The position numbers were made by a program, and so were the translations under genes. 64,000 nt of DNA from Candidatus Omnitrophota bacterium. GTDB taxonomy: Bacteria; Ratteibacteria; UBA8468; MWAK01. Every line of letters begins with the position of its first letter. Position 1 is the first letter of the stretch. Below, piece by piece: positions 22,890-23,599 of the stretch. The stretch covers positions 1-64,000 of the forward strand of contig JAZDPL010000073.1 in the NCBI GenBank assembly GCA_043797665.1. The letters run 5' to 3'. A model generated the notes under the pieces. That model was not told where the DNA came from. It searched no databases and saw only the letters and a program-made list of their open reading frames with translations.

Positions 22890-23120
22890 TTATTTTGTAC
22901 AACAAGCGCATCTGCAGGTCCCTGGTTTACAGGATTGACATTTCTCTCCGCAGGTGCAGGTTTTGCTGCAACCGGATACACAACATTGCTCCGGACAACG
23001 ACAGGTGGCAGAGCAGGTGCATTTGATTTTATTGCCGGACGTTCCTTTGTTGCCGGCAGTAAATGTTGTACAACCAGTAAGGAAAGTAACCGCAGCCAAT
23101 AACGCCATTAACTTCTTCAT
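22890..23120 (-). CDS. Lipoprotein with metallothionein-like Cys-rich domain
   Basis: MKK-hydrophobic-LTG^C lipobox; 15 Cys in the last 43 aa; SD GGAGG; directly downstream of csoR. Confidence 0.8.
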   Translation of the reverse strand: MKKLMALLAAVTFLTGCTTFTAGNKGTSGNKIKCTCSATCRCPEQCCVSGCSKTCTCGEKCQSCKPGTCRCACCTK

Positions 23121-23133
23121 CTTCGCCTCCTCT

Positions 23134-23418
23134 CTATCTGACTTTCCGGAACCGATGAATCAGGTCCAGGATTTCCTGCATTTTCTTCTCCTTTTCCTTA
23201 GTAGATGTGCCTTTCACTGCCTTCATTACGCAGTGTTCAAAGTGCGTCTTTAAGATTTTATCTTCCAGTCTGGCTAAGGCACCTACTGCCGCATGTATCT
23301 GGGTCAGAATCTCTACGCAGTACCCTTGTTCCTCAATCATCCGCTGGATGCCCCGGACCTGCCCTTCAATCTTCTTCAGATCCGGCAGGTTGTCCCGGTG
23401 AGACGGGTTCTTTTTTAT
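23134..23418 (-). CDS. csoR: CsoR/RcnR-family metal-sensing repressor (apparent ATA start)
   Basis: LKKIEGQVRGIQRMIEEQGYC...THFEHC (C-H-C ligands); homology extends upstream of the ATG at 23340 to an ATA 6 nt after AGGAGG. Confidence 0.88.
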   Translation of the reverse strand: MKKNPSHRDNLPDLKKIEGQVRGIQRMIEEQGYCVEILTQIHAAVGALARLEDKILKTHFEHCVMKAVKGTSTKEKEKKMQEILDLIHRFRKVR

Positions 23419-23438
23419 AGTCCACCTCCTTCTGTATG

Positions 23439-23468
23439 ATTATACCCTACCCCTCCATGGTATGTCAA
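23439..23468 (-). promoter_or_regulatory. csoR promoter with CsoR-type operator
   Basis: TTGACA, 18 nt, TATAAT; TACC-N7-GGTA with a C tract (23448-23462) in the spacer. Confidence 0.8.
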
Positions 23469-23599
23469 GAGGGAGGATTCCGCCGTCTACCCTGCGGTGG
23501 ATTTTTCCAGGGGTTCTCTATCGACGTATTGACACCCGCAACGAAATCACATAAAATTTAATGGTTTAACGGCAACGAATTAATCTGAAGGGGAGGAAA

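Follow-up and report, generated by a model that had tools for sequence, protein, structure and literature searches.

A predicted lipid-anchored, metallothionein-like peptide behind a CsoR-type copper sensor in a Candidatus Omnitrophota genome

The csoR cassette and its control region

The window, i.e. the whole analysed stretch of 64,000 nucleotides from a Candidatus Omnitrophota genome (here G000), carries on its minus strand (23468-22890) what its sequence reads as a compact cassette, in which a consensus promoter containing a CsoR-type operator is followed by csoR and by the gene for a predicted 76-amino-acid (aa) lipoprotein, hereafter P0001. Its features are given below, with G005 denoting a related genome.

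23439..23468, minus strand: sigma70-type promoter TTGACA-18-TATAAT, 12/12 consensus positions; same boxes in G005, with which identity starts just before the -35 box
23448..23462, no strand assigned: CsoR-type operator in the promoter spacer, TACC-N7-GGTA with a G-tract, from sequence and matrix score
23134..23418, minus strand: csoR, 94 aa, ATA start, single copy (PF02583; PDB 4m1p; Cu(I) fingerprint)
23123..23134, minus strand: ribosome-binding site of the peptide gene, immediately 3' of the csoR stop, from sequence
22890..23120, minus strand: ORF of P0001, predicted 76-aa lipoprotein, metallothionein-like; orthologue P0003 behind csoR in G005
23070..23120, minus strand: predicted type II signal peptide (rule-based), lipobox LTG-C17 with the Cys codon at 23072-23070; VAG-C14 in G005
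22893..23021, minus strand: 43-aa tail with 15 Cys in CxC, CC and CxxC groups, from sequence
23066..23074, no strand assigned: 9-nt direct repeat, second copy at 22895-22903, bordering a 171-bp in-frame deletion in related DNA

The preliminary description had proposed csoR followed by a 76-aa, Cys-rich ORF with a signal peptide, and the ORF (22890-23120, minus strand), the lipobox and the 15-Cys tail were all recovered. The two genes are separated by 13 nt (14 nt in G005). The cassette is flanked by a ThuA-family gene and a cupin gene, the latter not adjacent to the cassette in G005; between it and the peptide gene, no terminator was detected on the minus strand. Near-consensus promoters also lie on either side of the cassette, at 23529-23557 (divergent ThuA-family gene) and 22406-22378 (LacI-family gene).

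The csoR product matches PF02583 above the cut-off (E 7.9e-25), with 4m1p CsoR as its best PDB match, and no second CsoR was detected in G000. It carries Tyr33, Cys34, His59, Cys63 and Glu82, i.e. the X-Y-Z Cys-His-Cys ligands plus the second-shell Tyr and Glu, which together define Cu(I) sensors (PMC3320959; also section 3.2.4 of PMC11672702). The earlier assignment to the Cu(I) type is supported by this complete fingerprint, which appears conserved in relatives. In the DNA-binding helix, Lys16 is shared by 52/197 sequences of the clade, and Asp13 is rare (2/197). The gene starts with ATA (23418-23416), which follows AGGAGG at a distance of 6 nt; its G005 counterpart starts with ATG. Since an independent contig of run X1, covering 23129-23432 with zero differences, carries the same letters, this start is not an assembly slip; the earlier gene call was borne out, but the ATA start had been overlooked. 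It may lower repressor levels. Run X1 is an RNA library, and the presence of csoR in it is not proof of transcription; the lack of a contig over the peptide gene is uninformative, and the contig end at 23432 falls near the expected start site, although contigs cannot show starts.

The operator lies at 23462-23448, between the -35 and -10 boxes of the 12/12 consensus promoter, just as had been claimed. The bare TACC-N7-GGTA motif occurs 61 times in the genome, which is chance level, whereas a -35 box followed by the operator occurs once, an arrangement that is kept in G005. The motif is therefore notable for its position, which is unique in the genome and shared with G005. On a matrix combining 59 operators that belong to related csoR genes, the site scored 14.2 bits (genome rank 8), below the lower quartile of the reference set (20.3). 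By its letters, the operator is degenerate but resembles published CsoR boxes (PMC5057107), and a TAC(C)...GGTA box overlapping the csoR promoter is what is expected of a Cu(I)-sensing CsoR. At C32:9410 lies the genome's best operator-like palindrome, which was discarded because it falls inside a coding region. The operator search identified no other CsoR target in the part of the top matrix sites that was examined.

These features also bear on the metal that is handled. In place of a Cu detoxifier, P0001 could be an exported binder serving as a store or shuttle, which would either supply cuproenzyme assembly or handle a different metal (Zn, Cd, Ag, Hg or Fe). C-H-C CsoR proteins are described as also inducible by Zn and Cd (PMC5057107), and 177/209 clade CsoR sequences have an extra N-terminal His, which would suit such a role. 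However, the Tyr/Glu second shell is intact and a repressor operator implies induction by excess. Together with the leader evidence described below, we regard a store or shuttle as unlikely.

The predicted lipoprotein and its cysteine-rich tail

P0001 begins with MKK and a hydrophobic core, followed by the lipobox LTG-C17, a 16-aa linker of Gly, Thr, Lys and Asn, and the 43-aa tail, whose 15 Cys are accompanied by no His, aromatic residue or Met. The claim of a tail with 15 Cys and without His or aromatic residues was confirmed, and the two Phe of the whole peptide lie in signal and linker. No 43-aa stretch with more than 9 Cys appeared in 100 shuffles of the window, and P0001 is the only ORF of the 2.69-Mb genome passing a signal plus Cys-rich filter, so the tail is beyond chance. 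One other open 43-aa stretch with at least 10 Cys exists in the genome, a tandem repeat near 27350 of contig C22 (plus strand), which reads as GACPCVLE units with 12 Cys per 43 aa and is probably non-coding or a repeat array.

The basic n-region, hydrophobic core and lipobox Cys were recognised by rules and are conserved in G005, and genes for Lgt and LspA were found in G000. No A-x-A cleavage site is present at positions 17-28 of either P0001 or its G005 counterpart P0003. The AlphaFold model of P0001 has no confident fold (pLDDT 51, a low value merely consistent with disorder), and no helix is predicted outside the signal. Judged by properties, the peptide resembles a metallothionein: it is small, contains about 30% Cys in CxC, CC and CxxC patterns, has few aromatic residues and, according to the model, probably little structure without metal. 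The suggestion that its Cys pattern is more like that of animal metallothioneins did not hold up, as P0001 gave no metallothionein match in Pfam, NCBIfam or PDB; HMMER penalises Cys-biased sequences, and a distant kinship is possible. Likewise, no profile or structure match tied it to the named families (SmtA/BmtA, MymT, animal, plant, fungal). We thus describe P0001 as metallothionein-like in its predicted composition and regulation and place it in no named family.

Direct searches with the peptide yielded little. The word search and the plasmid search gave nothing useful, phmmer over 1.84 billion representatives returned 0 hits at E<=0.001, and PADLOC gave no match. A GTDB pattern search matched one locus (L001) through a shared signal peptide only, and a search of 40 relatives gave four weak matches that were not counted and missed even G005. 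In the ESM Atlas, three unnamed clusters at 0.82-0.89 (from Kiritimatiellota, an unrecorded source and Planctomycetota) are leads only, and no named cluster was found for the tail. While the proposed homologue search therefore remained empty for the peptide itself, relatives reached via csoR keep both the csoR linkage and export.

Small exported Cys peptides may also be precursors of enzymatically modified products. Bufferins are Sec-exported, Cys-containing copper chelators, and about 16% of the Buf2 group have lipoprotein signals (PMC12452194); lipidated RiPPs (DAG-RiPPs) have been described as well (PMC13056109). That P0001 is a precursor of this kind, with its Cys converted by an enzyme, is nevertheless very improbable: bufferins need MNIO enzymes (PMC12452194; 10.1101/2024.03.18.585515) and have far fewer Cys per length, no MNIO/DUF692 protein was found in G000 (86% complete; the control in Caulobacter was positive), neither G000 nor G005 has a recognisable modifying enzyme next to the cassette, and P0001 matched no bufferin family.

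Orthologous cassette and similar mini-genes behind candidate copper sensors

A CsoR search led to G005, which belongs to the same family but another genus and encodes a CsoR of 74% identity. Its cassette has the same promoter and operator, csoR with ATG, and then a 60-aa lipoprotein, P0003 (VAG-C14 and 9 further Cys in the tail), with DNA polymerase IV-like and peptidase-like genes as neighbours (labels from sequence reading). Because the neighbours differ and DNA identity begins at the -35 box, promoter, csoR and peptide gene appear to travel as one cassette. The tails of P0001 and P0003 align better than shuffles (7/2000 reach the real score) and are, on this alignment, clearly related.

Within its own phylum the cassette occurs in 2/65 genomes. 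Seven other genomes of the phylum contain a distant csoR without such a peptide, which in G003 adjoins copA and cupredoxin-like genes. In a careful 44-row CsoR tree, G000 and G005 group with sequences from the phylum of G065 (a neighbouring phylum, taken as Omnitrophota; 95/94) and apart from the seven (97/92), and constraining all nine CsoRs of the own phylum together was marginally rejected (AU p 0.041); a 165-row tree was a quick tree only. These phylogenies make a lateral gain of the cassette likely, with donor and direction not fixed by the tree and hidden paralogy possible.

A laterally acquired cassette might since have begun to decay and now do little. The ATA start in place of the ATG of G005, the operator score below the lower quartile and the presence in 2/65 genomes could be read this way, as could contigs of runs X2 and X4, which join 22894 to 23066 and skip 171 bp (22895-23065), so that the whole Cys tail is lost in frame. 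A sister strain thus appears, from these contigs, to have deleted the tail. However, the joint was aligned at 80% likeness with one side of 29 letters, and the two runs possibly stem from one campaign. In the window, both frames are open, the promoter matches 12/12 positions and all ligands and the lipobox are kept; in a second strain (contig of run X3) the peptide ORF is intact over 22899-23164 with 5 differences; and csoR is present in the RNA library, with the reservation given above. We therefore consider decay improbable.

Next, we analysed genes behind csoR more widely, in 124 loci from 401 genomes of the G065 phylum and 80 metagenome loci. Mini-genes with a signal and a Cys-rich remainder followed csoR in 13/124 loci (6 directly next, 7 as second gene) and in 5/80 metagenome loci (3 directly next, 2 as second gene; one identical to G258), whereas the same filter on the opposite strands gave 0 matches in 663 kb. 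Elsewhere in the clade, the genes behind csoR are TolC/CusC-like, YHS-like, CusB-like or HMA genes; 69/124 loci fall into named classes and 36/124 into "other" under crude sorting rules. Two observations concern these loci. At L111:1800-2024 (G432), an in-frame TAG interrupts the gene of a 15-Cys peptide that lies behind csoR, which points to either a pseudogene or a sequencing error; P0125 is an intact, near-identical protein. Moreover, a recurrent operon after csoR encodes a 335-aa porin-like exported protein, a second exported protein that contains Cys and reads AVGCxLxDPD, as well as a small lipoprotein and an ABC permease (L040, L048, L055, L108-L110, L112, L113, L115-L117, L128, L129).

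Profile searches matched 31/401 and 29/234 genomes, with 26 and 25 true mini-genes and 45 genomes in total. Four of the 31 matches (G118, G446, G161, G121) were discarded as signal-only and G373 was left out; 4 of the 29 had no such ORF. When applied to the own phylum, profile A7 gave two weak extra matches (G022, G048) but did not recover G000, and all counts are therefore minimum values. The peptides span 41-76 aa and form three types: a long type, mostly with 15 Cys and a repeating CC-x4-CxC, a short type with 6 Cys, and the G000/G005 type. Over 1047 residues, the mature domains contain 30% Cys, 15% Lys, 10% Gly and 0.2% aromatic residues.

Linkage to csoR, operator position and export, all expected from the preliminary description, appear conserved in these relatives. 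The lipid anchor fared less uniformly: the single true orthologue retains the lipobox, in line with the presence of Lgt and LspA, but a clear lipobox was seen in 2/31 aligned peptides (G000 and G005, with 2 more ambiguous) and in 0/25 of a further sample, 6 genomes of which overlap. As almost all relatives have ordinary signal peptides, export seems to be general and the lipid anchor a variant. Using a leave-out profile, the G000 tail was compared with the neighbouring-phylum peptides, and 88/2000 composition-matched shuffles scored as high (78/2000 for P0003; 51-931/2000 in pairwise tests for six relatives). This homology is marginal, so the context of the relatives counts as analogy as much as descent. 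By architecture, the G000/G005 peptides and their relatives would form one class, whose standing as a family is marginal and unproven.

In the 45 genomes, the mini-gene is preceded by csoR directly (9), by csoR and a leader (7), by a leader only (26), by the end of a leader at the edge of a contig (1), by an operator promoter (1) or by neither (1). Consequently, 44/45 genomes have at least one of these elements upstream, be it csoR, its operator or a CruR/CutF-like leader; the counts are not independent, since the genomes are related and csoR served to select the seeds. Copies found by profile and not via csoR mostly stand behind leaders with a signal and Cys that end in RAPP, HPP or RPP. The leaders comprise 100-142 aa with a signal, Cys groups and a C-terminal RAPP (8/18 examined) or HPP/RPP (10/18), resembling the architecture of CruR (PMC9426467) and CutF (PMC9973294; preprint 10.1101/2025.02.05.636593), which are DUF2946 proteins. 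One of 17 leaders matched DUF2946, weakly and under the cut-off (E 0.0056). The likeness to these systems lies with the relatives of the peptide gene, and no such leader is present in the window.

The leaders cut both ways for the store or shuttle outlined above. Genes behind CruR are described as off with copper and on when copper is scarce (PMC9426467), those behind CutF as on with copper. Many leader-type copies adjoin cysK, thi4-like, feoB or metX/W and not copper genes (names from sequence reading), which speaks against the copper reading, and some precede feoB-like genes, which would suit a store or shuttle. In contrast, at 5/8 RAPP loci the motif codons pair with the ribosome-binding site of the peptide gene beyond shuffles (2-4/100), i.e. 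stall codons hide this site in the CutF "on with Cu" layout; these loci are close kin, and HPP/RPP leaders showed such pairing in 0/10 cases. Seven loci (L234, L237-L239, L241-L243) have the order csoR, RAPP leader, 6-Cys peptide, mostly followed by YHS-like and permease-like genes, and may represent two stacked candidate copper switches; here the ribosome-binding site downstream can pair with codons ahead of RAPP. In L245-L259 and L265-L288, leaders of about 100 aa with signal and Cys end in FHPP, a CruR/CutF-like group that DUF2946 misses; their last Cys lies 41-42 residues before the motif in 8/10 checked, and they are often found beside cysK, thi4-like and feoB-like genes.

A putative metal sponge in the envelope

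The reading that we consider fairly probable, judging from these sequences, is that of a thiolate metal sponge, induced by Cu and tethered to a membrane in the envelope. In the absence of copper, CsoR would occupy the operator between -35 and -10 and block its own promoter, and Cu(I) bound at Cys34, His59 and Cys63 would release it, as is established for the family. The peptide would then be synthesised and exported via Sec, with Lgt lipidating Cys17 and LspA cleaving the precursor, as the lipobox and the presence of both enzymes suggest. Its flexible linker would keep the 15-Cys tail, predicted to be unstructured, on the envelope face of a membrane, where the tail may fold round several Cu(I), perhaps Ag, Cd or Zn, as thiolate clusters.

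P0001 would act as this sponge in a cell without detected CopA or CopZ. Neither was found in G000, nor was an HMA domain or a heavy-metal P1B ATPase over the cut-off, absences that rest on a genome of 86% completeness; G005 has no P1B ATPase and G003 has one. G000 does contain CusB-like and CusA/CzcA-like genes (C70:12-5014), which start 12 nt into their contig with the promoter unassembled, and P0001 is therefore not the sole possible copper defence.

The envelope is usually assumed to be too oxidising for poly-thiol peptides. P0001 might be a disulfide-bonded or redox-buffering lipoprotein, OmcA-like, that braces the envelope or absorbs oxidation under copper stress. Small Cys-rich envelope proteins are cross-linked by disulfides in Chlamydia (PMC6752827), the metallothionein PmtA has been tied to oxidative stress (PMC11237414), and the short relatives have an even number of 6 Cys. 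Yet no chlamydial family in Pfam matched P0001 at E<=1, neither DsbB nor VKOR, the two oxidases that the search covered, was found in G000, and four DsbD-type reductant carriers were. The number of Cys is odd in P0001 (15), P0003 (9) and 21/25 longer relatives, which are kin and not independent, and odd counts fit thiolates better than full disulfide pairing. Since the many vicinal CC and CxC pairs, the lack of a hydrophobic core or confident fold and the reductant carriers point in the same direction, thiolates are preferred, and a disulfide role is distinctly unlikely.

The fuller picture joins an exported-metallothionein class, lipid-anchored here, two types of copper sensor (CsoR and CruR/CutF-like leaders), Cu(I)-thiolate clusters, an envelope without disulfide-forming enzymes and a cell without CopA and CopZ; for this combination as a whole we see the chances as evenly balanced.

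Several known systems share parts of this arrangement. In Mycobacterium tuberculosis, the CsoR-family Cu(I) repressor RicR controls the tiny Cys-rich MymT (PMC4801387; section 4.3 of PMC7558416), but MymT is counted among the cytoplasmic sequestering proteins (PMC11672702), whereas P0001 combines a lipoprotein signal with 15 tail Cys and bears no detectable sequence similarity to it. CopL of Staphylococcus aureus is a membrane-anchored, Cu(I)-binding surface lipoprotein (PMC11672702), its gene often being located beside the CsoR-controlled copB-mco operon (10.1101/279000); it is described with a Cu(I)-binding architecture of its own, while P0001 matches no family and carries a poly-Cys tail predicted to be unstructured. 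SmtA, BmtA and PmtA are likewise small and Cys-rich and bind multiple metals, and PmtA has been seen on the cell surface without having a signal peptide (PMC11237414). SmtA adopts a zinc-finger fold (PMC7558416), in contrast to P0001 with its tail free of His and aromatic residues and no Pfam or PDB match. Csp proteins are Cys-rich and hold many Cu(I) per chain (PMC11672702) in a pre-folded four-helix bundle, whereas for P0001 no helix is predicted outside the signal.

The statement that no system of this kind has been described holds for the combination, and not for its parts, as RicR-mymT is a case of CsoR-family control over a metallothionein and CopL of a Cu-binding lipoprotein. The reviews covered describe few bacterial metallothioneins, none with a signal peptide; section 4.3 of PMC7558416 lists the SmtA type and MymT only. 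In the literature covered (mostly open, without supplements or standard metallothionein reviews), we found no bacterial metallothionein bearing a signal peptide, including periplasmic or Omnitrophota ones. The word "metallothionein" is absent from the main text of the CutF survey PMC9973294, whose supplementary neighbour lists may hold such genes. What seems new here, as far as sequences can tell, is the lipid-anchored form and the presence of the class in a second phylum.

If this reading is true, an exported, tethered metallothionein would be a third way of dealing with envelope copper, beside efflux and oxidation, and envelopes without Dsb oxidases could host thiolate clusters. Such peptides escape family libraries and standard homology searches, and a natural lipid-anchored metal sponge would be useful for biosorption.

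A separate Cys-rich candidate was seen near a csoR-copA locus. L081:3386-3667 is a 93-aa ORF without a signal, with 16 Cys in CxxxCxxC spacing, which may be like that of a Csp-type, four-helix copper store.
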